Positions 145 to 38,532 of a stretch of DNA of 64,000 nt are shown piece after piece (the stretch's first letter is position 1; the number at the start of each line of letters is the position of its first letter). The notes beneath the pieces were generated by a model, which was given only the letters and a program-made list of their open reading frames with translations, was not told the DNA's origin and made no database searches. The DNA comes from Candidatus Dormiibacterota bacterium. GTDB lineage: Bacteria; Chloroflexota; Dormibacteria; Dormibacterales; Dormibacteraceae. The position numbers and the translations under genes are program-made. The DNA is taken from NCBI GenBank assembly GCA_035934385.1, contig DASYXY010000030.1, positions 374-64,373 on the forward strand, written 5' to 3'.

Positions 145-1314
145 CTAGAGGCCGCCCGGGATGACGCCGCCGCAAGCGCCCTGGGCGCTGACCGGCGCGA
201 TGTTGCCCGTGGTCACGTCGCCGATTCTTGGCTGCTGCTGGGCGTCTCCGCCAGCGAGCACGTGAGAGTTGTCGACCCAGCCGCAGGCAACCATGTCGAG
301 AGCCTGCTTGGCGCCGGCGAGGGTGGTGGCGTTGTTGACTACCAGCGCGACCCTTGTGCCGTCAGGCGACAGGTAAGCCGGCGTCGGTCCCTGGATCGCG
401 AACGTCTGCACGGTTGCCCCGGTCCAGCTCAGGACGTGGACCTGACTGAACGCGCTGTTTTCGCAAAGGGCGCCCGCTGGCGTCGCCGAGCCGACGGGGA
501 TGCACGCCGTTCCCCCCAGCGTGAACTTGCGTCCAGCGGTCGTCGGGTCCACCACGTGAAGCTCCTGCGGACCGCAGCATGTCGGTCCGCCGCCCTGCGT
601 GCAGGAAGGCACCTTGGCCACCACGAGGTTGTCGCTCCCATGCCAGCCGATCGGCCACAACGTGTATGCGCCGGTCTCTGAAAACAGCTTGACGTGGTTG
701 GTGCCGCCGTTCAGGTCTTCGACGTACAGGACGGTCGTGGCGCCGCCGGTGCTGTAGGTGTTCTCGACCACGGCGATTCGCGAATCGTCGGGGCTGACAC
801 TGAACATGCTTCGAATCAAATCGCTGGTAGGCACGTGAGTGGCGATGCCTGTGACACCGTTGGGCGACAGAAAGTTGACGTTGCCCTGCTGGTCGAGGAA
901 GTACAGACGCGTGTTGCTCGTGCTCACGGGCAACGGCAGCACCGCGGCTGCTGAGCCGCCGCACGTGACCGGCGTCGGGCTGCTCGGTGTCGCGCTTGCC
1001 ACCACCTTGCCGGTGTTGTCGACGAGGCTGACGGCATAGGTGCCGGTGCCGCTGAGAGCAACCAGCACGCCGTAAAAAGCAATGGGCAACGCAGGCGCCG
1101 AGGGCGAACTGGCGGGCGAAGCGCTCTCTGACGAAGTCGGCGAAGCGGCGGGGCTCGAAGACGCCACCGGCGTTTGCCTCGCGGCCGTGCTGGACGAACC
1201 ACAGGCCGCTACGAGAAGGATGGCTACAGCGTAGGCGACGACCTTCAAGAGACCGCCGGGTATTTTGATCCCTCCCGGGTCTGTTCGCCAGGTGGCCTCT
1301 GCACCTGCCGTCAC
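145..1314 (-). CDS. putative lipoprotein with Ser/Pro-rich linker and beta-propeller-like (TolB/PD40-like) body
   Basis: 389-aa ORF. The N-terminal hydrophobic segment ends in the lipobox-like LVAACGSS, followed by a low-complexity S/P/A linker and then a beta-rich Gly/Thr/Val sequence. No specific family recognised. Confidence 0.55.
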   Translation of the reverse strand: MTAGAEATWRTDPGGIKIPGGLLKVVAYAVAILLVAACGSSSTAARQTPVASSSPAASPTSSESASPASSPSAPALPIAFYGVLVALSGTGTYAVSLVDNTGKVVASATPSSPTPVTCGGSAAAVLPLPVSTSNTRLYFLDQQGNVNFLSPNGVTGIATHVPTSDLIRSMFSVSPDDSRIAVVENTYSTGGATTVLYVEDLNGGTNHVKLFSETGAYTLWPIGWHGSDNLVVAKVPSCTQGGGPTCCGPQELHVVDPTTAGRKFTLGGTACIPVGSATPAGALCENSAFSQVHVLSWTGATVQTFAIQGPTPAYLSPDGTRVALVVNNATTLAGAKQALDMVACGWVDNSHVLAGGDAQQQPRIGDVTTGNIAPVSAQGACGGVIPGGL

Positions 1315-1391
1315 TTTTCCGGTACCATCCTCGGGCTGAAGCAGGGCACGACCCTCACCCCCAGGCGCCAGCCGAAGGGGTACAGAAAGTG

Positions 1392-1426
1392 CGGACGGCT
1401 TCCAGCTGTCCGTTTTGTTTTATTTG
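1392..1426 (+). terminator. intrinsic-terminator-like hairpin plus U-tract in the infC operon leader (possible attenuator)
   Basis: CGGACGGC / ttcca / GCTGTCCG stem (one G-U pair) is followed directly by GTTTTGTTTTATTTG. It lies 72 nt upstream of the infC start, on the infC strand. Confidence 0.5.
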
Positions 1427-4343: not shown

Positions 4344-6719
4344 ATGCGCATCTCCTACGAGTGGCTGGGCGAATACGTCGACACTAAGGGGCTGAGTCCC
4401 GTGGAGGCAGCCGACTTCCTGACGATGTCCGGCACCAAGATCGAGTCGGTCCAGGTCATCGATCTGTCAGCGATCATCGTTGGCCGCGTGCTCGAGCAGA
4501 AGGACCACCCGAGCTCGAACAAGCCGCTCTGGATCCACCAGGTCGAGGTCGGCGGGGGCAAGGTGATCCAGATCATCGCCGGCGCTCCGAACGCTGTGGC
4601 CGGAACGCTCGTGCCCGTAGCGCTTCCAGGCACGCGGGTGCCGAGCGGCACTCTCGTCCGCGACGCCAAGATCGCGGGCCAGGCGGGCCAGGGCATGCTG
4701 TGCTCCGCGGACGAGCTCCTGCTGGGCGAGGAGCGCGAGCCCAGGATCATGCTGCTCGACCGCGGCGAGCCAGGAGAATCGCTGGCCAAGTACATCCCGC
4801 CCGACGCGATCCTCGAGGCCGAGATCACACCCAACCGGCCCGACTGTCTCGGCCACATCGGCGTAGCCCGCGAGCTTGGTGCGGCGGCCGGCCGCGAGTT
4901 CAAAGCGAACTTCATGCCGCCGTACATCGAGGGCGTGCAGCCGCCGGCGAGCGAGCTCATCGACATCGCCATCGAAGTCCCTGACCTGTGCAGTCGTTTC
5001 GTCGCGGTTCCAGTGACCGGGTTGAAGGTCGGGCCGAGCCCCGACTGGGTTCAGCGCCGCCTGCGCGCCGCCGGCGTGCGACCTATCAGCAATGTCGTCG
5101 ACGCCACCGCCTACGTGATGCTCGAACACGCCAAGCCGACGCACGTGTTCGACGCCGCAAAGCTGGCGGGCAAGCAGCTTCATGTACGCGAAGCGCGTGA
5201 CGGCGAATCCCTGCTGTGCCTCGATGGGCAGACGCGAAAGGTCGGCCCCGGCATGCTCGTGGTCGCCGACGCCAAGGGTCCGGTTGCCATCGGAGGGATC
5301 ATCGGCGGCGAGGAGAGCGGCGTCTCCGAAAGCACCACCGACGTGGTCATCGAGTCGGCCGGATGGAACGGCGTCAACATTCGCGCCACCTCGCGGGCCC
5401 TCGGCCTGCGCACCGAGGCCTCACTCCGCCACGAGAAGGGCCTTGCACCGGAGATGGCGATGGCGGCCGCCCGCCGCGCCGCGGCGCTGGTGCGCGATTG
5501 GGCCGGCGGGAAGGTGCACGCAGACTGGGTCGACGTCTACCCGCGGCCGCAGGAGCCGGTTCGCATCCAGCTCGAACCGCAGAAGATCGACGGTCTGCTG
5601 GGCGTCCGGGTTCCACCCGACGAATCGCAGCGCATCCTTCGCGACCTCGACTTCCAGGTTCGCGACGACGATGGGACGTGGGATGTGCTGCCCCCGGTGT
5701 TCCGTGTCGACGTGGAACTCCCGGAGGACGTCGTCGAGGAGGTGGGGCGCATCTACGGCATCACCCGCATCCCGGCCACGCTGCCTGGCTCACGGCACAC
5801 CAGTTGGAACATCGCGCCGGCCGAGGACAACCACTGGATGCTGCGCGAGGTGCTACTTGGTGCGGGCTTCGACGAGGTGGTCACGCCGGCGCTCGTCTCG
5901 CACCGGTCCCTGCAGCGGCTTGGCCTCGCGGAAGGTGCGCGGACGCTGTTCAACCCGATGAGCGACGAGATGGACTCGATGAGGACCTCGCTGCTCCCTT
6001 CCTTGCTCTCAGTGGCTCGTTACAACCAGAACAGGATTTCGGAACGGGTTGACGTGTTCGAGCTCGCGCGGGTTTATCGCGGCAGCCGTGCGGACGGGCT
6101 TGCCGACGAACAGATCCACCTGACAGCTCTCGCGCGGGTCGACTCTGCCGCGGATGCAGGGAGACGTGGGTTTCTGCGTTTGAAGTCGGCGATGGACCGC
6201 TTGGCGCAGGACCTCGTCGCCGGCACCGTGCGTTACCTGCGCGAGGCGCCGCACCTGTATCACCCGGGCCGGACGGCGTCGATCGTGGTTGGCGGCAAGG
6301 CGATCGGTGTCGTAGGCGAGCTTCATCCGTCAACGCTGGCCGTGTTCGACCTGGACGGCCGCGCGGTGGCGCTCGACGTCGATGTCGAGGCGCTGATCGC
6401 AGCACGCGGCGACCGCAAGGCCACCGAGCTGCCCCGCTTCCCCGCGATCCAGCGCGACATCGCGGTCGTGGTCGACATGAGCGTTACTGCCGGCGAGCTG
6501 CACCGCGCAATCAAAGAGTCAGCCGGCAACTCGCTGGAGAGCGTGCGCGCGTTCGACGAATACCGCGGCGACCAGGCCGGCGAGGGCCGCAAGAGCATCG
6601 CGTTCACCTTGACTTTCCGGAGCCCCGAGCGCACCCTGACGGACGCCGAAGTGGAGAGGGTGATGTCTGACGTCCGGAAACGGCTGGAGAAAAAGCACGG
6701 GGCCAGGTTCCGTTCATGA
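4344..6719 (+). CDS. pheT: phenylalanyl-tRNA synthetase beta subunit
   Basis: 791 aa. Starts MRISYEWLGEYVD, with B3/4, B5 and FDX-ACB-type C-terminal segments. It follows pheS directly. Confidence 0.95.
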   Translation: MRISYEWLGEYVDTKGLSPVEAADFLTMSGTKIESVQVIDLSAIIVGRVLEQKDHPSSNKPLWIHQVEVGGGKVIQIIAGAPNAVAGTLVPVALPGTRVPSGTLVRDAKIAGQAGQGMLCSADELLLGEEREPRIMLLDRGEPGESLAKYIPPDAILEAEITPNRPDCLGHIGVARELGAAAGREFKANFMPPYIEGVQPPASELIDIAIEVPDLCSRFVAVPVTGLKVGPSPDWVQRRLRAAGVRPISNVVDATAYVMLEHAKPTHVFDAAKLAGKQLHVREARDGESLLCLDGQTRKVGPGMLVVADAKGPVAIGGIIGGEESGVSESTTDVVIESAGWNGVNIRATSRALGLRTEASLRHEKGLAPEMAMAAARRAAALVRDWAGGKVHADWVDVYPRPQEPVRIQLEPQKIDGLLGVRVPPDESQRILRDLDFQVRDDDGTWDVLPPVFRVDVELPEDVVEEVGRIYGITRIPATLPGSRHTSWNIAPAEDNHWMLREVLLGAGFDEVVTPALVSHRSLQRLGLAEGARTLFNPMSDEMDSMRTSLLPSLLSVARYNQNRISERVDVFELARVYRGSRADGLADEQIHLTALARVDSAADAGRRGFLRLKSAMDRLAQDLVAGTVRYLREAPHLYHPGRTASIVVGGKAIGVVGELHPSTLAVFDLDGRAVALDVDVEALIAARGDRKATELPRFPAIQRDIAVVVDMSVTAGELHRAIKESAGNSLESVRAFDEYRGDQAGEGRKSIAFTLTFRSPERTLTDAEVERVMSDVRKRLEKKHGARFRS

Positions 6720-30837: not shown

Positions 30838-31746
30838 ATGGCCAGAGAGTTGGGTCGCCTGCTGACCGCGATGATCACCCCGTTCAAGGCCGACGGCTCG
30901 ATCGACTTCGGCGCTGCAGAGAGGCTTGCCAACATGCTGGTCGCCGACGGATCGGATGGCGTGGTCGTCTCGGGCACCACCGGCGAATCGCCGACGCTGT
31001 CAGACGATGAGAAGGTGGAGCTCGTCGGGGTGGTCAAGAAAGCGATTCCCGACAACGACGTCGTCGCCGGCACCGGTAGCAACGACACGCACCACTCGAT
31101 CAAGCTTTCCGAACGCGCGATGAAGGCGGGCGCGGATGCGCTGCTCGCGGTCGTGCCCTACTACAACAAGCCGCCGCAGGACGGCATGTACCACCACTTC
31201 AAGGCGATCGCCGAGGTGGGGCCGACCATCATGTACAACATCCAGGGCCGCACCGCGATCAACATGACCGCGGCGACCACCCTCCGCTGCGCCGCGCTGC
31301 CGGGCATCGTCGGCGTCAAGGAGGCGAGCGGCGACCTCGACCAGATGGGCCTTGTGTGCGCGGGCAAGCCGAAGAGCTTTCGCGTGTGGAGCGGTGACGA
31401 CAGCTTCACCCTGCCGCTCATGGCCGTCGGCGGCTACGGGGTGATCTGCGTCACCTCGCACCTGGCGGGCAAATCGATGAAGCGCTTGATCGAGGCGCAC
31501 ATCGCGGGCGATAACGAGACCGCGCGGCGCATCCACCTGGGTCTGCTGCCGGTGATCAAGGCGCTCATGACGACCGCCGCCAACCCGGTGCCTGTGAAGT
31601 CGGCGCTCCAGGCCATGGGCTTCCCGGCCGGGCCGTTCCGCCTCCCGTTGGTGCCGCTCACCGACGAGCAGCTGCAGTCGGTCATGAAAGTCGTTCGTGA
31701 GGCCAGCGACCTCATCACGTTCAAGGCCGGAGTCAAAGTCGCTTAA
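30838..31746 (+). CDS. dapA: 4-hydroxy-tetrahydrodipicolinate synthase
   Basis: VVSGTTGESPTLS, YNKPPQ, GVKEASGD motifs. Confidence 0.9.
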   Translation: MARELGRLLTAMITPFKADGSIDFGAAERLANMLVADGSDGVVVSGTTGESPTLSDDEKVELVGVVKKAIPDNDVVAGTGSNDTHHSIKLSERAMKAGADALLAVVPYYNKPPQDGMYHHFKAIAEVGPTIMYNIQGRTAINMTAATTLRCAALPGIVGVKEASGDLDQMGLVCAGKPKSFRVWSGDDSFTLPLMAVGGYGVICVTSHLAGKSMKRLIEAHIAGDNETARRIHLGLLPVIKALMTTAANPVPVKSALQAMGFPAGPFRLPLVPLTDEQLQSVMKVVREASDLITFKAGVKVA

Positions 31747-32368
31747 CGCCTTCGCCGAGCTCCAGGTTCTTCACGCCGAGGTGCGGGGCTGCACCAGGTG
31801 CAGCCTGCATGCCACGCGCACGCAGGCGGTACCGGGAGTCGGCCCGTGTCCCGCCGACGTGATGATCGTGGGTGAAGCACCTGGCTTCAACGAGGACCGC
31901 CAGGGCGAACCGTTCGTCGGCCCTGCAGGCAAGCTTCTCGACACGCTGCTCGGCCGCATCGGCCTGAGCCGGGCGGACGTCTACATCACGAACGTCCTCA
32001 AGTGCCGGCCGCCGCAGAACCGCGACCCCATGCCCAACGAGGCCGAGGCGTGCGAGCCCTACCTGCAGCGACAGCTCCAGCTGATCAAGCCGAAGGTGGT
32101 TTTGGTGCTTGGGCGGCACGCACTCGAGCGCCTGCTTCCTGGGCAGGGGTCGATCTCACGCATCCACGGCAGCCTCGTGCTGCGCGGTGACATCGCGTAC
32201 GTGCCGCTGTACCACCCGGCGGCGGCGCTGCACAACGGATCGCTCGTCGCCGACCTCGAGCGTGACTTCGACAGCGTGCGCAAGTACCTCGACCGATTCC
32301 TCGCCCCGCCTCCGCCACCGGAACCAGAGCCTGAGAGGCAGGAAGCCGAGCAGCTACGTCTGTTGTGA
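31697..32368 (+). CDS. family 4 uracil-DNA glycosylase (start uncertain; ATG 31697 overlaps dapA by 50 nt)
   Basis: CTRCSL, GEAPGFNEDRQGEPFVGPAGKLL, and LYHPAAAL motifs. Confidence 0.8.
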   Translation: MRPATSSRSRPESKSLNAFAELQVLHAEVRGCTRCSLHATRTQAVPGVGPCPADVMIVGEAPGFNEDRQGEPFVGPAGKLLDTLLGRIGLSRADVYITNVLKCRPPQNRDPMPNEAEACEPYLQRQLQLIKPKVVLVLGRHALERLLPGQGSISRIHGSLVLRGDIAYVPLYHPAAALHNGSLVADLERDFDSVRKYLDRFLAPPPPPEPEPERQEAEQLRLL

Positions 32369-32420: not shown

Positions 32421-34076
32421 ATGACCCAAGGGCGACTCCGCTACCTGCCGCTTGGCGGCCTCGGCGAGGTCGGCATCAACATGTGGGCCCTCGAGTGGGA
32501 GGACAAGGTCCTCGTGGTCGACTCGGGCCTGATGTTCCCCCAGGACGACATGCTCGGCATCGACCTGGTGCTGCCGGACATCTCCTACCTGCTGGAGAAG
32601 GATCGAGACGTCGTCGGGATCGTCCTGACGCACGGGCACGAGGACCACATCGGCGGCCTGCCCTACGCGCTCAAACTCCTGAACGTCCCGGTCTACGGGA
32701 CGCGGCTCACACTCGGGCTGCTGAAGCCCAAGCTGCGCGAGCACCACATCCTGCGCGAGGCCGACCTACGCGAGATTCGAATCGGCGACGCCGTCCAGCT
32801 CGGCCCGTTCCGGGTGGAGGCGGTCGCGGTGTGCCACTCGATTCCTGACGCAGTCGGGCTTTCGATCGAGACCCGGGTAGGCCGTGTCGTCTACACGAGC
32901 GACTTCAAGCTGGACCCAGCGCCGCCGGACGGTCTCCCCACCGACATGGCGCGGTTCAAGCGTCTCGGCGACGATGGCGTGCTGCTCCTGCTCAGCGACT
33001 CCACCAACGCGGAGCGCGAGGGCCACTCCGGCTCGGAGCGGGACCTCCACGCGCCGTTCGAGCGCATCTTCGGCGAGGCGCCAGGCCGGATCGTGGTCGC
33101 CAATTTCGCTTCCAACATCCACCGCATCCAGCACCTGGTGCGCATGGCGATTCAGTTCGATCGGCGGGTCGCGGTGGTCGGTCGCAGCCTGCAGCAGAAC
33201 TTCAAGACCTCTCGGGAGCTTGGGTTCCTCGACGTGCCAGAGGGTCTGACGGTGCCGCTGGAGGAGGCGGATCGGATTCCGCCATCGAAGCTGCTGCTGC
33301 TGACAGCCGGTAGCCAGGGCGAGCCGATGTCCGCGCTGACCCGTTTCGCGGCCCAGCGCCACCCGCTCGTGAACGTGCGCAAAGGCGACTGGGTCGTGAT
33401 CTCCGCGCGGCCCATCCCGGGCAACGAGCGGATGGTCCTCCAGACGGTGAACAACCTGTACCGGCACGGCGCCCGGGTTTTCTACTCCGAGGTCGGCAAC
33501 GTTCACGTCACCGGACACGCGCAGCGGGCGGAGCTGCGCGAGATGCTCGACGCGGTGCGGCCGCGCTACTTCATCCCTGTCCACGGCGAGTACAGGCAGC
33601 TGCTGCAACACGCCGAGCTGGCGAAGGAAATGGGCGTCCCCGACGACCGCGTTGTCGTAGTCGAGGACGGCGAATCCGTCGAGCTCGACGCGCAGTCGAT
33701 CCAGCGGGGCGAGAAGATCAGCACCGGTCTCGTGTTCGTCGACGGTCTGGGCGTGGGGGACGTGGAGCAGGTCGTGCTGCGCGACCGCCGGCACCTGGCC
33801 GAGGACGGGATCCTCGTCGTTACGCTGGCGCTCGACCGCGACACGGGATCGCTGCGGGCAGGACCAGATCTCCTGTCACGCGGCGTCATCGAACCCGAGC
33901 TGTCCACGAAACTGATGGCCGACGCTCGCAAAGCGGCTGTGGATGTCATCCGGCGCCTTGCGGAGTCACGCGACCTGAACATCCTGCAAGAGGCGATCCA
34001 CGACGCCGTTTCCAAGACTGTGTGGCGACAGACCCGCCGCCGCCCGATGGTCATCCCCGTCGTGACCGAGATATGA
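32421..34076 (+). CDS. rnj: ribonuclease J
   Basis: ATG 32421 gives MTQGRLRYLPLGGLGEVGINMW.... Metallo-beta-lactamase HGHEDHIGG, beta-CASP and C-terminal domain. The ORF-track N-terminal extension overlaps udg. Confidence 0.9.
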   Translation: MTQGRLRYLPLGGLGEVGINMWALEWEDKVLVVDSGLMFPQDDMLGIDLVLPDISYLLEKDRDVVGIVLTHGHEDHIGGLPYALKLLNVPVYGTRLTLGLLKPKLREHHILREADLREIRIGDAVQLGPFRVEAVAVCHSIPDAVGLSIETRVGRVVYTSDFKLDPAPPDGLPTDMARFKRLGDDGVLLLLSDSTNAEREGHSGSERDLHAPFERIFGEAPGRIVVANFASNIHRIQHLVRMAIQFDRRVAVVGRSLQQNFKTSRELGFLDVPEGLTVPLEEADRIPPSKLLLLTAGSQGEPMSALTRFAAQRHPLVNVRKGDWVVISARPIPGNERMVLQTVNNLYRHGARVFYSEVGNVHVTGHAQRAELREMLDAVRPRYFIPVHGEYRQLLQHAELAKEMGVPDDRVVVVEDGESVELDAQSIQRGEKISTGLVFVDGLGVGDVEQVVLRDRRHLAEDGILVVTLALDRDTGSLRAGPDLLSRGVIEPELSTKLMADARKAAVDVIRRLAESRDLNILQEAIHDAVSKTVWRQTRRRPMVIPVVTEI

Positions 34077-34378
34077 AGCTTCCGCCGCTCGCGCTGGTCG
34101 CCCCGAGCCTTTGCCCGCGGTGCGACCAGCCGGCGATGGTCCTGGACCGGCTCGAAGACCAGCGCTGCGCGCACTGCGGGCTGCAGCTGCACCGGTGCGG
34201 CAGCTGCCACGGCGTGGCCGGCCCGTTCGACCGCTTCTGTGGCTTCTGCGGCCACGAGCTGGTGCGTGGAGAGGAGCGGGCGCCCTACTGGCGGCTCTGG
34301 ATGCTGGCCGGCCTGGTTCCTCTGCTGGCCGGGCTGGTCTACGGCGTCGTCTGGGCCGCCTCCCACCCGATCAAGTAG
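34073..34378 (+). CDS. double zinc-ribbon protein with C-terminal TM anchor, coupled to rnj
   Basis: ATG 34073 overlaps the rnj stop (ATGA). Contains CPRC...CAHC and CGSC...CGFC pairs followed by WMLAGLVPLLAGLVYGVVW. Confidence 0.55.
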   Translation: MKLPPLALVAPSLCPRCDQPAMVLDRLEDQRCAHCGLQLHRCGSCHGVAGPFDRFCGFCGHELVRGEERAPYWRLWMLAGLVPLLAGLVYGVVWAASHPIK

Positions 34379-34389
34379 GGGAGGGGACG

Positions 34390-34686
34390 TTAGCCTCCGG
34401 CGATCGCTCCCAGGATCAGGTAGGGCTCCTTCCCGGCCGCGACCTCACCAGGCAGTGGTTCGTCGATCGGATCGTCCGAATGATCTTCCTCGCACGCGAA
34501 GAACCTGAGCATCGGCCGCCGCTTCTTGGTCTTCGGGTCGCGGATCGTCCCCAGCAGCGCCGGGTAGCGCGCTTCCAGCGCGTCCAGCACCGAGCGCTGC
34601 GTGACGTCACCTTCGACTTCGAGCTCAAGCGAGCGGCCGGTGCCTGCCAGCAATTGCAGGTTCTTCGGCAGCACGACCTGGATCAC
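34390..34686 (-). CDS. MoaD/ThiS-family ubiquitin-like beta-grasp protein with free C-terminal Gly-Gly
   Basis: GTG 34686 overlaps the upstream stop (GTGA). 98 aa. [13 protein letters not shown]...[17 protein letters not shown]...[12 protein letters not shown]-stop. Confidence 0.75.
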
Positions 34687-35801
34687 GGCAGCGTCTGCAC
34701 CTCGACCGACATGACGAGCGGAAGGTCGCACACGATCGCGCTCCAGCTGTTGCCGTCATCGTTCGACGCGTACACCTGGCCGCCGCTGGTGCCGAAGTAA
34801 ATGCCGCACGGGTCGAGCCTGTCGACCGCCATCGCGTCGCGAAGCACGTTCACGTAGCAGTCCTTCTGCGGCAAGCCCTTGGTCAGAGCCTCCCAGTCGT
34901 CGTCGCCTCCCTTTCGGTTGCGGTAAACGCGCAGCTTGCCGTCCATGACGTAGTGGTGCGAGTCGCTCGTGATCGGCAGCACGTAGACGGTGTCTGGGTC
35001 GTTGGCGTTGGTGTCGACGACGAAACCGAAGTCCGTGGGCAGGTTGCCGCTGATCTCGCGCCAGTTGTCGCCTTTGTCGTCGCTCCGCATCACGTCCCAG
35101 TGCTTCTGCATGTAGAGCGTGTCCGGCTTCGAAGGATGCATGGTGATGTGATGCACGCAGTGGCCGAACTCGGCGTCGGGGTCGGGGATGTGGTTCGAGC
35201 GCAAACCGTGGTTGATCGGCTTCCAGCTCGTGCCGCCGTCGTCGGTCCTGAAGGCGCCCGCGGCGGAGATGGCGATGACGATCTTGTTCGAGTCCTTCGG
35301 GTCTTCGATGATGGTGTGCAGGCACAGCCCGCCGGCGCCAGGATTCCACTCCGGAGCCGTGCGATGCGTACGGAGTGCCGGCAGCTCGGCCCACGTCTGG
35401 CCGGCATCGGTCGACTTGAAGATGGAGGCGTCCTCGACCCCGGCGTAGACGGTATCCGGGTCTTTCAGCGAGGGCTCCACGTGCCACACGCGCTTGAACT
35501 CATAGGGATGGGGAGAGTTGTCGTACCACTTGTGGGGACCGACGTTGCCGGCGTATTCGAACTGGTTGCCGACGGTCTCCCACGTCTTGCCACCGTCGTT
35601 CGAGCGGTGCATCACCTGGCCGAACCAGCTGCTTGACTGCGACGCGTACAGGCGATCGGGGTCGGCCGGCGAGCCCTTCATGTGGAAGATCTCCCAGCCC
35701 GGAAACAGCGGGCCTTCGACGTCCCAGCTTTTCCGGGTTCCGTCCGAGTTGAGGATGAACGCGCCCTTACGGGTGCCGACCAGGACTCGCACTTTGCTCA
35801 C
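34683..35801 (-). CDS. BNR/Asp-box repeat beta-propeller protein (sialidase-fold, function unknown)
   Basis: Asp-boxes [43 protein letters not shown] 35801 lies 9 nt after GGAGG (TTG 35807 is the alternative start). No signal peptide. Confidence 0.8.
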
Positions 35802-35871
35802 GAGCAACTACCTCCACATTGACGACCGGTCGTTGGCCAACACGATAAATGACTCCCGGGGCGGGCGAAAC

Positions 35872-36168
35872 TCATCGGTTCAAGCGTTTTCCGCATTCCA
35901 CGCAAAAGCTGTGGCGGCCCAGATTGTGGTGACCGCAAAACGTGCAGACGAGGCGGCGTGGAGGATCGGCCTGCAGCCACCGTTCGTGCTCGCGGCGGTA
36001 CCAGATTCCGTCCTCGGGTCCCAGCATCCAGCGATGGCCTTCGCCGTCGAGCACTGCGAGATCGCGCACCGCGAGCCTGAAAGCTCGCGCCTGCAAACCG
36101 CCCGCGCGCCTCTCCGCGACCAGCGCTCGATATCTCGCCTCGGCTTCGGCGAATGGATCGACCGCCAC
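35872..36168 (-). CDS. small protein with C-terminal zinc ribbon (hypothetical)
   Basis: 98 aa from GTG 36168, with coding-like GC3. Ends CTFCGHHNLGRHSFCVECGKRL. No SD. Same strand as the propeller gene, 64 bp upstream of it. Confidence 0.45.
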   Translation of the reverse strand: MAVDPFAEAEARYRALVAERRAGGLQARAFRLAVRDLAVLDGEGHRWMLGPEDGIWYRREHERWLQADPPRRLVCTFCGHHNLGRHSFCVECGKRLNR

Positions 36169-36255
36169 CGAGAAAGTATCGCCCGCAGCGCGATGCCGAG
36201 GGCGGCACGCAGGCGGGGTGTAGAATCCATCGGAACCGGGCCCCGGTAACGCAGC

Positions 36256-38532
36256 ATGCCTCGCACCACTGCACGCAGCTCACGTTCCTCCTCGCACGGC
36301 GCGCGGCGCTCATCCTCCGCGCGAAGTCGCTCGACGCGTTCGCAACGCCGGGTGCAGGCACGGCTTACGCAACGACAGGTGCGCGAGATCGGCGGCGTGC
36401 TGCTGCTCCTCGTCGGCCTGCTTGGAGTGCTGGCGGCCGCGAGCAGCCAGGGTTCGATCCTGACCGGCATTCGCGAATGGCTCCTGGGTAGCTTCGGGCG
36501 CGCGTGGTTCGTTCCCGTCGCCGTCGCCATCGGCACCGGCGCGTACCTGCTGTGGCCAAAGGCCCCGAGGCCACGGCCGCTCGACGTGGTCAGCGGCCTG
36601 GTCGCCGTGTTTTCGCTCGTCGGGCTGTTCGGCATGGCGGGAGCGCACGGCGGCGGACTTGGTGCGGGTATCGACCAGGCGCTCATCGAGGTTGTGGGCA
36701 CTTGGGGAGCGTGGGCGCTGCTGGTCGCGGGCCTCGTCATCGGGCTCATCGTCACGATCCACTTCAGTCCCGGCGCCGTCATCCAATCGCTGCTCGACGC
36801 CGCAAAGGCCGCCCTCGCCGAGCGCGACCGCCTCGACCGCCTGGTCCACCTGCCAGAGCAGCCGAAGGCGTCACCGATGAAAGCGGTGAACGGCGCATCG
36901 CTCGCGGTAGGGCCCGCGTATCCGCCTGTTCCGTCGGCGCCGCATCCGTGGGAGCTGGAGAGCGACCCCGAGCCCCAGCCCAGGAGGGAGCCGGCGCGAG
37001 AGGAGCGGATGGAAAAGAAAGAGCCCGACGAGGCCGAGCCGAAGCCCGCGCTGCGCGTCGTTGCGGAGCCTGAGGATGACCTGCCCCAGATCGAATGGAA
37101 GCTGCCGCCGATCGCGCTGCTAGACACCGTCACTGCGCGCCGCGAGCGAATGAAGGACGAGATCAAGCGCAACGCGGTGGTGATCGAGCAGACGCTTGAA
37201 ACCTTCGGCGTGCCTGCGAAGGTCGTCGGAGTCAACCCTGGTCCTGCGGTCACGCAGTACGAGGTGCAGCCAGGCGCTGGCGTGCAGGTGAAGAGGATCA
37301 CCGCGCTTCAGAACGACCTGTCGCTGGCGCTGGCCGCCGCGCCACTGCGCATCGAAGCCCCGATTCCGGGCAAGTCTGCGGTGGGCATCGAGGTGCCGAA
37401 CAAGGCGGCGAGCCTGGTGACCATCCGCGAGGTCCTCGAGACCGCGGCGTTCCGCGAAGGCACGCACTCGCTCGCACTCGCGATGGGCAACGACGTGTCC
37501 GGCGCGTCGATCGTGGGCGACCTCACACGCATGCCGCACCTGCTCATCGCCGGCGCGACGGGGCAGGGCAAGAGCGTGTGCATCAACGCCCTCATCACAA
37601 GCCTTCTGTTTCAGACGACGCCCGATCACATGCGGCTACTGCTCATCGACCCGAAGCGCGTCGAGATGACGAGCTTCCACGGCCTGCCTCACCTCGCGCT
37701 GCCCGTGCTCGTCGAGTCCCATCAGGCCGCGGCGGCCCTCCGCTGGGCGGTGGCCGAGATGGACCGGCGCTACAAGCTGTTTTCCGCCGAGGGCGTCCGC
37801 AACATCGCCGCTTACAACGAGAAGGCGACGCTGCGGTCCGCGCGTCGGCTGCCGTACGTCGTGGTCGTCATCGACGAGCTCGCGGACCTGATGATGGTCG
37901 CAGCTGGCGAAATCGAAGAGCTCATATGCCGCATCGCGCAGCTGGCGCGGGCTGTGGGCATCCACCTCATCATCGCCACGCAGCGCCCGTCGACGGACAT
38001 CATCACCGGCCTAATCAAGGCCAACATCCCGTCCCGCATCGCGTTCGCGGTCGGGTCCCAGGTCGACAGCCGCGTCATCCTCGACGCGGGAGGGGCCGAG
38101 AAGTTGCTTGGACGCGGCGACATGTTGTACCAGCCGGTCGATGCCGGCAAGCCGACGCGCATCCAGGGCGCATTCGTCAGCGACGCCGAGGTCGAGTCGG
38201 TCGTGAGCTTCTGGAAGTCGCAAGGTGCACCGCGCTACATGGAGGAGATCCTCGAGGAAGGCGCCGGCTCGGAGTGGGAGGGAAGCGAGAGATCCGAACG
38301 CAAGCTGGACCCGTTGTTTGCGCGTGCAGCGCGCGCAGTTGCAGCTGAAGGCGCGGCGTCGGTGTCTTTGGTCCAACGGAAGTTCAACGTCGGCTACTCG
38401 CGCGCGGGCCGCATAGTCGACCAACTCGCTGAGCATCGCGTGATCGGCGGATACCAGGGCTCGAAATCGCGCGAGGTGAATATGAATCTGCCCGATGTCG
38501 ATGAGCTGCTGGAGCGACTCGGCCTCGAATAA
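36256..38532 (+). CDS. ftsK: DNA translocase FtsK/SpoIIIE
   Basis: N-terminal TM block, Pro/Glu linker, motor domain (GATGQGKSV Walker A, VVVIDELADL), C-terminal gamma winged helix. Confidence 0.9.
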   Translation: MPRTTARSSRSSSHGARRSSSARSRSTRSQRRVQARLTQRQVREIGGVLLLLVGLLGVLAAASSQGSILTGIREWLLGSFGRAWFVPVAVAIGTGAYLLWPKAPRPRPLDVVSGLVAVFSLVGLFGMAGAHGGGLGAGIDQALIEVVGTWGAWALLVAGLVIGLIVTIHFSPGAVIQSLLDAAKAALAERDRLDRLVHLPEQPKASPMKAVNGASLAVGPAYPPVPSAPHPWELESDPEPQPRREPAREERMEKKEPDEAEPKPALRVVAEPEDDLPQIEWKLPPIALLDTVTARRERMKDEIKRNAVVIEQTLETFGVPAKVVGVNPGPAVTQYEVQPGAGVQVKRITALQNDLSLALAAAPLRIEAPIPGKSAVGIEVPNKAASLVTIREVLETAAFREGTHSLALAMGNDVSGASIVGDLTRMPHLLIAGATGQGKSVCINALITSLLFQTTPDHMRLLLIDPKRVEMTSFHGLPHLALPVLVESHQAAAALRWAVAEMDRRYKLFSAEGVRNIAAYNEKATLRSARRLPYVVVVIDELADLMMVAAGEIEELICRIAQLARAVGIHLIIATQRPSTDIITGLIKANIPSRIAFAVGSQVDSRVILDAGGAEKLLGRGDMLYQPVDAGKPTRIQGAFVSDAEVESVVSFWKSQGAPRYMEEILEEGAGSEWEGSERSERKLDPLFARAARAVAAEGAASVSLVQRKFNVGYSRAGRIVDQLAEHRVIGGYQGSKSREVNMNLPDVDELLERLGLE

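Follow-up and report, generated by a model that had tools for sequence, protein, structure and literature searches.

A conserved gene pair encoding a seven-bladed Asp-box propeller and a MoaD/ThiS-like beta-grasp protein

Here two overlapping minus-strand genes are analyzed within a 64,000-nucleotide stretch of DNA (termed here the window), which comes from a metagenome-assembled genome (MAG) of Candidatus Dormibacterota and has a G+C content of 66.8%. The first gene encodes a cytoplasmic Asp-box propeller with seven blades, and the second a 98-residue protein (termed here the carrier) that ends in a free Gly-Gly (GG) and is predicted to adopt the beta-grasp fold of MoaD/ThiS-type sulfur carriers. 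The two genes are read as a translationally coupled operon in which the propeller is the carrier's dedicated partner: the carrier would be activated by an E1 enzyme and its C-terminal tail delivered to a conserved pocket of the propeller. This reading is given an even chance of being right. More generally, the pair probably constitutes a sulfur-transfer or tagging pathway as yet undescribed, and what is novel about it is a MoaD/ThiS-type carrier system with a partner class that has no precedent. The genes and the signals that accompany them are as follows.

34683-35801, minus strand: Asp-box propeller gene (372 residues; cytoplasmic, seven-bladed), start GTG at 35801, stop TGA at 34685-34683
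34390-34686, minus strand: MoaD/ThiS/CysO/SAMP1-like beta-grasp gene (98 residues), start GTG at 34686, end ...LGAIAGG-TAA
34683-34686, minus strand: GTGA overlap between the propeller stop and the beta-grasp start, read directly and indicating translational coupling
35811-35815, minus strand: Shine-Dalgarno sequence GGAGG, 9 nt 5' of the propeller GTG start, read directly

A first-pass annotation of this DNA had described three minus-strand open reading frames (ORFs)--a zinc-ribbon gene, the propeller gene and the beta-grasp gene--as one coupled unit. All three ORFs are present where it placed them, as are the five Asp-boxes, the ...LGAIAGG-TAA end and the GTGA overlap that it reported; the unit itself stands for the propeller and beta-grasp genes (adjacent in 78/80 loci) and fails for the zinc-ribbon gene (0/80 loci). 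The ORF listing also offers an alternative propeller start, TTG at 35807, which yields a protein of 374 residues. The true start is likely GTG at 35801 (372 residues), because GGAGG lies 9 nt upstream of it and because homologues are 371 residues long and begin MSxVRVLVGT; AGGAG-like sites occur at the equivalent position in orthologous loci. Residue numbers given below follow the 374-residue form.

In agreement with the first-pass statement that no described pathway pairs a BNR propeller with a ubiquitin-like carrier, neither a paper nor a curated family describing the pair was found: NCBIfam (June 2026 release) and Pfam hold no specific model for either protein, and two systematic surveys of prokaryotic beta-grasp and ubiquitin-like (Ubl) systems mention no sialidase, BNR or propeller partner. 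The literature on COG4447 was rejected as an account of the propeller, since it concerns a different, periplasmic BNR protein accompanied by DUF1302, DUF1329 and RND genes.

Conservation of the pair in orthologues and sister subfamilies

Relatives were sought in one genome per GTDB species, using a 10-sequence alignment for the locus search; this gave at least 598 propeller matches among species-representative genomes, and the neighbourhood statistics refer to the best-scoring 80 loci of each scan. The best 80 orthologous loci encode propellers that are 67-74% identical to that of the window. Their record titles name Dormibacterota, Eremiobacterota, Acidobacteriota, Gemmatimonadota, Chloroflexota, Actinomycetota and Planctomycetota, as well as Verrucomicrobiota, Methylomirabilota, Rokubacteria, Hydrogenedentota, Rhodothermales and Alphaproteobacteria (13 or more phyla in all). 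A survey of gene co-occurrence and overlap across phyla, of the kind that the first-pass annotation had proposed, found the small gene directly downstream of the propeller gene in 78 of the 80 orthologous loci (one of the exceptions being a contig end), with the 4-nt ATGA or GTGA overlap kept in 61 of these 78. The terminal GG is exact in 67 of 74 complete small genes, a few others having 1-4 extra residues. Across phyla the propellers share a mean pairwise identity of 79% (minimum 69%; orthologues are 69-91% identical), which puts the conservation of the pair on a par with that of core housekeeping proteins. The carriers share a mean of 65%, with the motifs RFFAC..D and GA.AGG almost invariant and the tail GA[IM]AGG nearly so.

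All-against-all clustering of flanking ORFs from the 80 orthologous and 80 sister-subfamily loci yielded no other conserved neighbour gene. A regular-expression search of the loci for the JAMM motif gave three weak matches, none adjacent to the pair, and PADLOC matched none of the proteins; there are thus no conserved E1, E2 or JAB neighbours, and no PADLOC match, of the sort that mark Bil-type Ubl conjugation and defence systems. A k-mer search upstream of 78 orthologues for a promoter motif returned Shine-Dalgarno-like sites alone (one recurring upstream 8-mer was rejected as such a motif, being the coding end of the upstream gene), and sigma-70 and terminator scans found nothing.

Several genes do recur as direct neighbours of the pair, in about 10-13 of the 80 loci, from several phyla and also in P. 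aeruginosa: genes for extracytoplasmic function (ECF) sigma factors, here carrying a C-terminal SnoaL_2-like extension, and for YciI/DGPF proteins, VOC/glyoxalase proteins and HxlR-type regulators (loci L018, L029, L036, L056, L012, L042, L062, L030, L013 and L051, and L171 of P. aeruginosa). In L029 and L018 a YciI gene on the same strand ends 14-28 nt upstream of the pair; ArsR genes also recur loosely, and DinB_2 is among the stress-type neighbours. The ECF sigma, YciI, VOC and HxlR genes may reflect a link to a stress regulon. Individual loci depart from the usual gene structure: the beta-grasp ORF continues past GG into a 485-residue AAA+ ATPase in L022 (7113-8870) and into a YjbR-like domain in L049 (1200-1886), and in L084 (~4270) GG is followed at once by a single stop codon that is in frame with the propeller. 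Such cases may come from sequencing errors or read-through, or else be recent fusions or fissions.

The association between propeller and beta-grasp protein is older than the window's orthologous group. A sister subfamily at 40-57% identity, represented by 80 metagenomic loci, has a GG-ended beta-grasp gene downstream of the propeller in 38 loci, a separate one upstream in 18 and one fused to the propeller in about eight (14 of the 80 gave no match to a beta-grasp partner). The fusions are in frame and have the order ...SGG, linker, propeller; in P0290 (41% identity), for example, a ThiS-family domain (PF02597, E = 1.6e-10) ending in ...PAVSGG is followed by a linker and the propeller, and L157 and L162 encode further fusion proteins. 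In Nonomuraea (39% identity) a MoaD/ThiS gene lies downstream of the propeller gene. At ~30% identity, genes named 'exo-alpha-sialidase' in R. solanacearum, Burkholderia, C. metallidurans CH34 and P. aeruginosa are preceded by a MoaD/ThiS gene, annotated as such or detectable, whose product ends in ...QALSGG. The proteobacterial modules are located as follows.

L171, 3699-5095: P. aeruginosa
L168, 3690-5152: R. solanacearum
L169, and L170 (C. metallidurans CH34)

According to one paper, the YbaK gene that follows the P. aeruginosa propeller gene is PA1357; because numbering is consecutive before it, the pair (MoaD/ThiS protein WP_023090681.1 and propeller WP_003123007.1) is presumably PA1355/PA1356. 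One paper reports that PA1356 promotes colonisation and adhesion, a role that apparently goes back to the 'exo-alpha-sialidase' name alone. An initial interpretation of the distant relatives as paralogues that lack a partner, which came from an empty tblastn search of plasmids with the window's small protein, was dropped once a different, canonical MoaD/ThiS gene was found to be present.

The propeller and the carrier

By sequence, the propeller has a single match of solved structure, PDB 3B7F (E = 1.1e-67 over residues 6-369, ~33% identity), which is Reut_B4987 of Cupriavidus/Ralstonia eutropha JMP134. The AlphaFold2 model of the propeller (pLDDT 84, pTM 0.86; ~27 strands) likewise has 3B7F as its first Foldseek neighbour (TM-score 0.84), with GH74 xyloglucanases, DAIP, Ycf48 and sortilin next. 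The similarity to 3B7F is full-length in sequence and extends to the fold, and the propeller ORF, like 3B7F, has exactly five Asp-boxes; no signal peptide is seen in the translated N-terminus, which starts directly with a beta-strand segment. The protein is, in short, a member of the 3B7F family, a cytoplasmic Asp-box propeller with seven blades. In a survey of Asp-box proteins 3B7F is listed as seven-bladed, with five Asp-boxes and with its function 'not known' (PMC2716378); this crystal structure has been without a function since 2007.

That the propeller is a self-sufficient glycoside hydrolase, and the small neighbouring gene incidental, is very improbable. To be sure, the Asp-box propeller fold and the GH74 xyloglucanases among its structural neighbours fit such an enzyme, as do the names given by the NCBI pipeline ('exo-alpha-sialidase' and 'glycosyl hydrolase, BNR repeat'). 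Against it stand the adjacency of the two genes in 78/80 loci and again, in three arrangements (fusions among them), in the sister subfamilies, and also the missing signal peptide. Nor does the propeller have the marks of either enzyme family. GH33 sialidases have six blades, an (F/Y)RIP motif, an Arg triad and a Tyr/Glu nucleophile, whereas this protein has seven blades, no R[IVL]P motif and only one invariant Arg, and scores 15.6 bits with Pfam BNR_2 against a cut-off of 31.4; the sialidase interpretation, including the BNR/sialidase fold of the first-pass annotation, is rejected on these grounds, and the database label 'exo-alpha-sialidase' is a mislabelling. GH74 enzymes need two tandem seven-bladed propellers, which make up their catalytic cleft, whereas here there is a single propeller of 372 residues (target-normalised Foldseek TM-scores 0.31-0.34), and 3B7F itself is the entry whose function the survey cited above gives as not known. 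The Pfam models that the propeller does match above their cut-offs are Sortilin-Vps10 and BNR.

Outside the Asp-boxes, the conserved propeller residues are H148, H164, S181, C217, H219, Q234, H236, R323, D329, Y337 and T340, among which H164, H219, Q234, H236 and R323 are also shared by 3B7F and by the proteobacterial subfamily; C217, which is flanked by His residues, is invariant within the window's subfamily. In the AlphaFold2 secondary structure the conserved residues map to loop 2-3 or to inner strands, there at the N-terminal end, and they would therefore lie on the top face as defined for Asp-box propellers, that is, the face opposite the Asp-boxes, which in the glycosidases of this class is the active-site face (PMC2716378). 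Three His together with Gln and Arg would suit either a metal site or a site that binds a carboxylate or thiocarboxylate. Sortilin and Ycf48, among the structural neighbours, carry bound peptides in their structures (a progranulin peptide and a D1 peptide, respectively), both of them C-terminal tails. The suggestion that Cys217 tracks the presence of a partner was rejected: partner-less paralogues from Streptomyces and Fuscovulum keep Cys217, and the partnered proteins of Ralstonia and Pseudomonas lack it.

Some propeller homologues have additional segments. In P0252 (704 residues) an N-terminal Ser/Thr protein kinase domain is fused to the propeller with no obvious transmembrane segment between them, a hint that sensing or recognition may be among the functions of the propeller; P0304 (539 residues) has a long N-terminal extension; and in P0129, P0155 and P0221 (424-457 residues) a stretch of 50-85 residues from a blade segment is duplicated internally, which may be genuine or an artefact of assembly.

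NCBI lists a protein with 100% identity to the small protein, from a Candidatus Dormibacteraeota MAG, under the name 'MoaD/ThiS family protein'. Profile searches, which the first-pass annotation had put forward for all three of its proteins, bear out the BNR assignment of the propeller, leave the zinc ribbon below the cut-off and find no Pfam match to the small protein at E<=1; among NCBIfam models SAMP1 alone responds (E = 0.055, 14 bits vs a cut-off of 60), with SAMP1 in the PDB at E = 0.3. Structure prediction agrees better with the beta-grasp that the first-pass annotation had seen in this ORF. An AlphaFold2 model built on a 25-sequence alignment (pLDDT 88.4, pTM 0.79) has SAMP1, CysO and MoaD as its top Foldseek matches (probability 1.00, TM-scores 0.72-0.74) and Urm1 among the rest: SAMP1 (3po0) comes first with E = 1e-5, and CysO, which is also matched on its own, reaches TM-scores of 0.73-0.74 in its complexes with CysM (3dwg_C) and BexX (4n6e_B). 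At the level of profiles, hhalign aligns the window's carrier family with the ThiS-family partners of the sister propellers (probability 98.9%, E = 2e-17), which themselves match PF02597 at 41.8 bits against a cut-off of 22.5, so that the two partner families are, judging from these alignments, homologous. The models thus support a beta-grasp protein of the MoaD/ThiS/SAMP kind. Two of the usual features of MoaD/ThiS proteins, a fold of about 65-100 residues and a free C-terminal Gly-Gly, are present, and a third is absent: the sole conserved neighbour is the propeller, not one of the known acceptors (MoaE, ThiG, CysM, TtuA or BexX).

Proposed activation of the carrier and proposed role of the propeller

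The 64-kb window itself encodes no ThiF/MoeB, MoaE, ThiG, PALP/CysM or JAB domain according to Pfam scans of about 56 ORFs, which bears out the first-pass observation that E1, MoaE, ThiG, CysM-type and JAMM genes are missing here. The conclusion drawn at that time, that no established context for a GG-ended carrier applies, was too strong. A search with a ThiF probe--an approximate sequence validated only by its matches, which Pfam confirmed as ThiF--finds that in 4 of 166 loci the immediate neighbour of the pair is a ThiF-type E1 gene. In L124 the genes run propeller, beta-grasp and ThiF+Rhodanese, with a 4-nt ATGA overlap; in L053, which belongs to the orthologous group, a divergent ThiF+Rhodanese gene lies 130 bp upstream; and L086 and L113 have divergent ThiF genes. 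About 0.17 adjacent E1 genes would be expected by chance, given an assumed two or so E1 genes per 4000-gene genome, as compared with the four observed (Poisson P ~3e-5). It is common for a sulfur carrier to depend on an E1 that is encoded elsewhere, such as MoeZ for the CysO and BexX carriers and TtuC in Thermus. Rhodanese-fused E1 enzymes, moreover, are of the sulfur-transfer type, which in actinobacteria serves CysO and MoaD, and because the linked E1 enzymes include this type, their presence beside the pair favours thiocarboxylate formation over pure protein tagging.

The proposed mechanism is as follows. A housekeeping E1 of ThiF, MoeB or MoeZ type, usually encoded elsewhere, would adenylate the C-terminal glycine of the carrier and, often by means of a rhodanese domain, would turn it into a thiocarboxylate. 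The carrier would then dock on the top face of the propeller, and its GG tail would enter a pocket formed by H164, H219, Q234, H236 and R323 (family-wide) together with C217, D329 and Y337 (in the window's subfamily), where the sulfur, or the activated C-terminus, would pass to a substrate or metal centre. In this way the propeller would fill for the carrier the role that MoaE, ThiG, CysM or BexX plays elsewhere. A further step, that the propeller is a thiocarboxylate-dependent enzyme or a sulfur-receiving metallo-centre of a new class, acting in an undescribed pathway of sulfur insertion or persulfidation, is possible but doubtful.

Several known systems resemble this arrangement in part. As in the MoaD-MoaE system, a GG-ended beta-grasp carrier is encoded beside, overlapping or fused with its partner, and the E1 (there MoeB or MoeZ) is usually encoded elsewhere; MoaX of M. 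tuberculosis, a MoaD-MoaE fusion that has to be cleaved after GG, parallels the in-frame propeller fusions. The partner there, however, has the MoaE fold and is not a seven-bladed propeller, and near the window's pair there are neither molybdenum cofactor (Moco) genes nor a Moco riboswitch. CysO, which acts with CysM in M. tuberculosis, and the carrier of BexX in the 2-thiosugar pathway of Amycolatopsis are among the best structural matches to the window's carrier; both feed sulfur to an enzyme outside Moco and thiamin synthesis by way of a shared MoeZ-type E1+rhodanese, the type that is adjacent in L124 and L053. CysM is a pyridoxal phosphate-dependent synthase, though, and BexX a ThiG-like TIM barrel, whereas the acceptor here is a beta-propeller, and no JAMM (Mec+) gene is linked. 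With SAMP1, Urm1 and TtuB the carrier shares a free GG end, and SAMP1 is both its top Foldseek match and its sole weak sequence match; unlike them, it stays at 14 bits where 60 are required, has no linked machinery for conjugation or deconjugation, is bacterial and has a fixed propeller partner. On the propeller side, 3B7F belongs to the same family, with seven blades, five Asp-boxes and H164, H219, Q234, H236 and R323 in common, but with Asp in place of C217. The sortilin Vps10 domain and Ycf48 are non-enzymatic Asp-box propellers that set a precedent for gripping a protein's C-terminal tail; yet sortilin is ten-bladed and extracytoplasmic, Ycf48 is an assembly factor of photosystem II, and both lack the His/Gln/Arg pocket as well as a beta-grasp partner.

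The following points weigh against an E1-activated carrier that delivers its tail to the propeller. The surroundings of the pair, both in the window and in 162 of the 166 loci, contain no gene for an E1, a rhodanese, a desulfurase or a JAMM protein; activation is therefore something that we infer rather than see. Rfam shows no match to Moco, thiamin pyrophosphate or S-adenosylmethionine riboswitches in the window (33500-37000) or in 11 orthologous loci, and neither a riboswitch nor a pathway gene points to a product. The small protein fails the ThiS/MoaD models of Pfam and NCBIfam. C217 and Y337 are unconserved in the proteobacterial subfamily and in 3B7F, and plasmid-borne paralogues from Streptomyces (L081) and Fuscovulum (L082) keep the Cys/His pocket but have no gene for a beta-grasp protein within 6 kb, so that a propeller working without its carrier is conceivable. 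Docking of the tail in the pocket, finally, would follow from topology rules, not from coordinates.

Two other accounts of the small protein accept the pairing. It may, first, be a modifier of SAMP, Urm1 or TtuB type that is activated by an E1 and conjugated to proteins, with the propeller as its main target or as an adaptor; in one version, analogous to Urm1-Ahp1, the thiocarboxylate would persulfidate or protect Cys217 under oxidative or electrophile stress. The in-frame fusions of beta-grasp domain, GG and propeller do resemble ubiquitin-fusion precursors, SAMP1 is the best structural match and Urm1 is also found, Cys217 is His-flanked and invariant in the subfamily, the recurring neighbours (HxlR, VOC, ECF sigma with YciI, and DinB_2) are of stress type, and the kinase-propeller fusion suggests a recognition domain. 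Nevertheless such a modifier is unlikely, given that the conserved surroundings of the pair include no gene for a JAMM/deubiquitinase, an E2 or a ligase, that two of the linked E1s have a rhodanese domain and so are of the sulfur-transfer type, that the proteobacterial subfamily keeps the partner and has lost Cys217, and that PADLOC finds no match to Ubl-containing defence systems.

The small protein might, secondly, serve the propeller as a chaperone or as a structural or regulatory subunit with no C-terminal chemistry, comparable to TmoB of toluene monooxygenase. Such a role fits the 1:1 complex that is implied by the fusions and the translational coupling, and also the absence of an E1 gene from nearly all neighbourhoods and the divergence of the window-type protein beyond recognition by Pfam ThiS. 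Against a mere subunit stand the GG end that is free in 67/74 orthologues, the near-invariant GA[IM]AGG tail, the GG ends of the sister partners and the ThiF gene found adjacent in four loci (with rhodanese in two of them and once translationally coupled), and this account is distinctly unlikely.

The wider interest of the pair lies in its setting. Each of the characterised carriers of MoaD/ThiS type has led to a distinct sulfur chemistry or form of tagging (molybdopterin, thiamin, cysteine, thiosugars, tRNA thiolation, SAMPylation and urmylation), and here such a carrier is tied to a partner from a fold class never before linked to this type. If the propeller does depend on a thiocarboxylate, then its pathway would make a so far unrecognized compound or mark that contains sulfur, be it a metabolite, a cofactor or a modification of proteins. 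Hundreds of bacteria, most of them from soil, would have this pathway in common; they would span 13 or more phyla, and P. aeruginosa, Ralstonia and Cupriavidus would be among them. Because the module occurs in genetically tractable organisms, its function is directly testable.

The zinc-ribbon gene, the palindrome and other features of the window

Two further features were assigned to the coupled unit by the first-pass annotation.

35872-36168, minus strand: gene for a 98-residue protein with a C-terminal zinc ribbon, judged to be a real gene, lineage-specific and outside the conserved module
35822-35833: 12-bp palindrome ACGACCGGTCGT, read directly

The zinc-ribbon ORF does end in the CxxC...CxxC tail reported for it (CTFCGHH...CVECGK), with weak Pfam zinc-ribbon matches (E ~1e-3, below the cut-off). 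A homologue was found by tblastn in none of the 80 orthologous loci, those of other Dormibacterota included. In the near relative L163 the upstream region is 88% identical at the DNA level and the zinc-ribbon protein 94% identical; 18 of the codon changes are synonymous and 5 are non-synonymous, a pattern that points to a real gene under purifying selection and to a lineage-specific neighbour of the pair. (At L163, on a related contig of 150 kb, the ORF at 4522-4815 is uncalled and looks like a missed small gene.) The palindrome is present at the position reported; it is, however, one of 56 perfect 12-bp palindromes in the window and is unconserved in L163, and it was rejected as an operator. 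That zinc-ribbon, propeller and beta-grasp genes form a unit of three under control of this palindrome is accordingly scarcely credible, even though the ORFs are co-oriented with short gaps between them and the zinc-ribbon gene is real in a close relative: with the zinc ribbon found in 0/80 loci, such a conserved unit is refuted, and the ORF was rejected as its third member.

The three minus-strand ORFs form an island between RNase J (plus strand, ending at 34076) and FtsK (plus strand, starting at ~36256), amid plus-strand housekeeping genes: asd, dapA, a uracil-DNA glycosylase gene and rnj on one side, and ftsK, pgsA-cinA, recA, recX and rny on the other. An ORF of 118 residues (34022-34378, plus strand) overlaps the 3' end of the RNase J gene and converges on the beta-grasp gene, with 11 nt separating their stop codons; it encodes a double zinc ribbon (CPRC...CAHC...CGSC...CGFC; Pfam DZR, E = 3e-4, below the cut-off) and a C-terminal hydrophobic segment. 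The uracil-DNA glycosylase, which is of family-4 type (31697-32368, plus strand), lies 2 kb from the pair; another adjoins the partner-less propeller paralogue on the Streptomyces plasmid (L081, 7188-7865), probably by coincidence. Near the start of the window, an ORF of 424 residues (145-1419, minus strand), whose sole Pfam match is a weak one to the LpqB beta-propeller domain (Gmad1, E = 1.5e-4), encodes a second, unrelated putative propeller protein.

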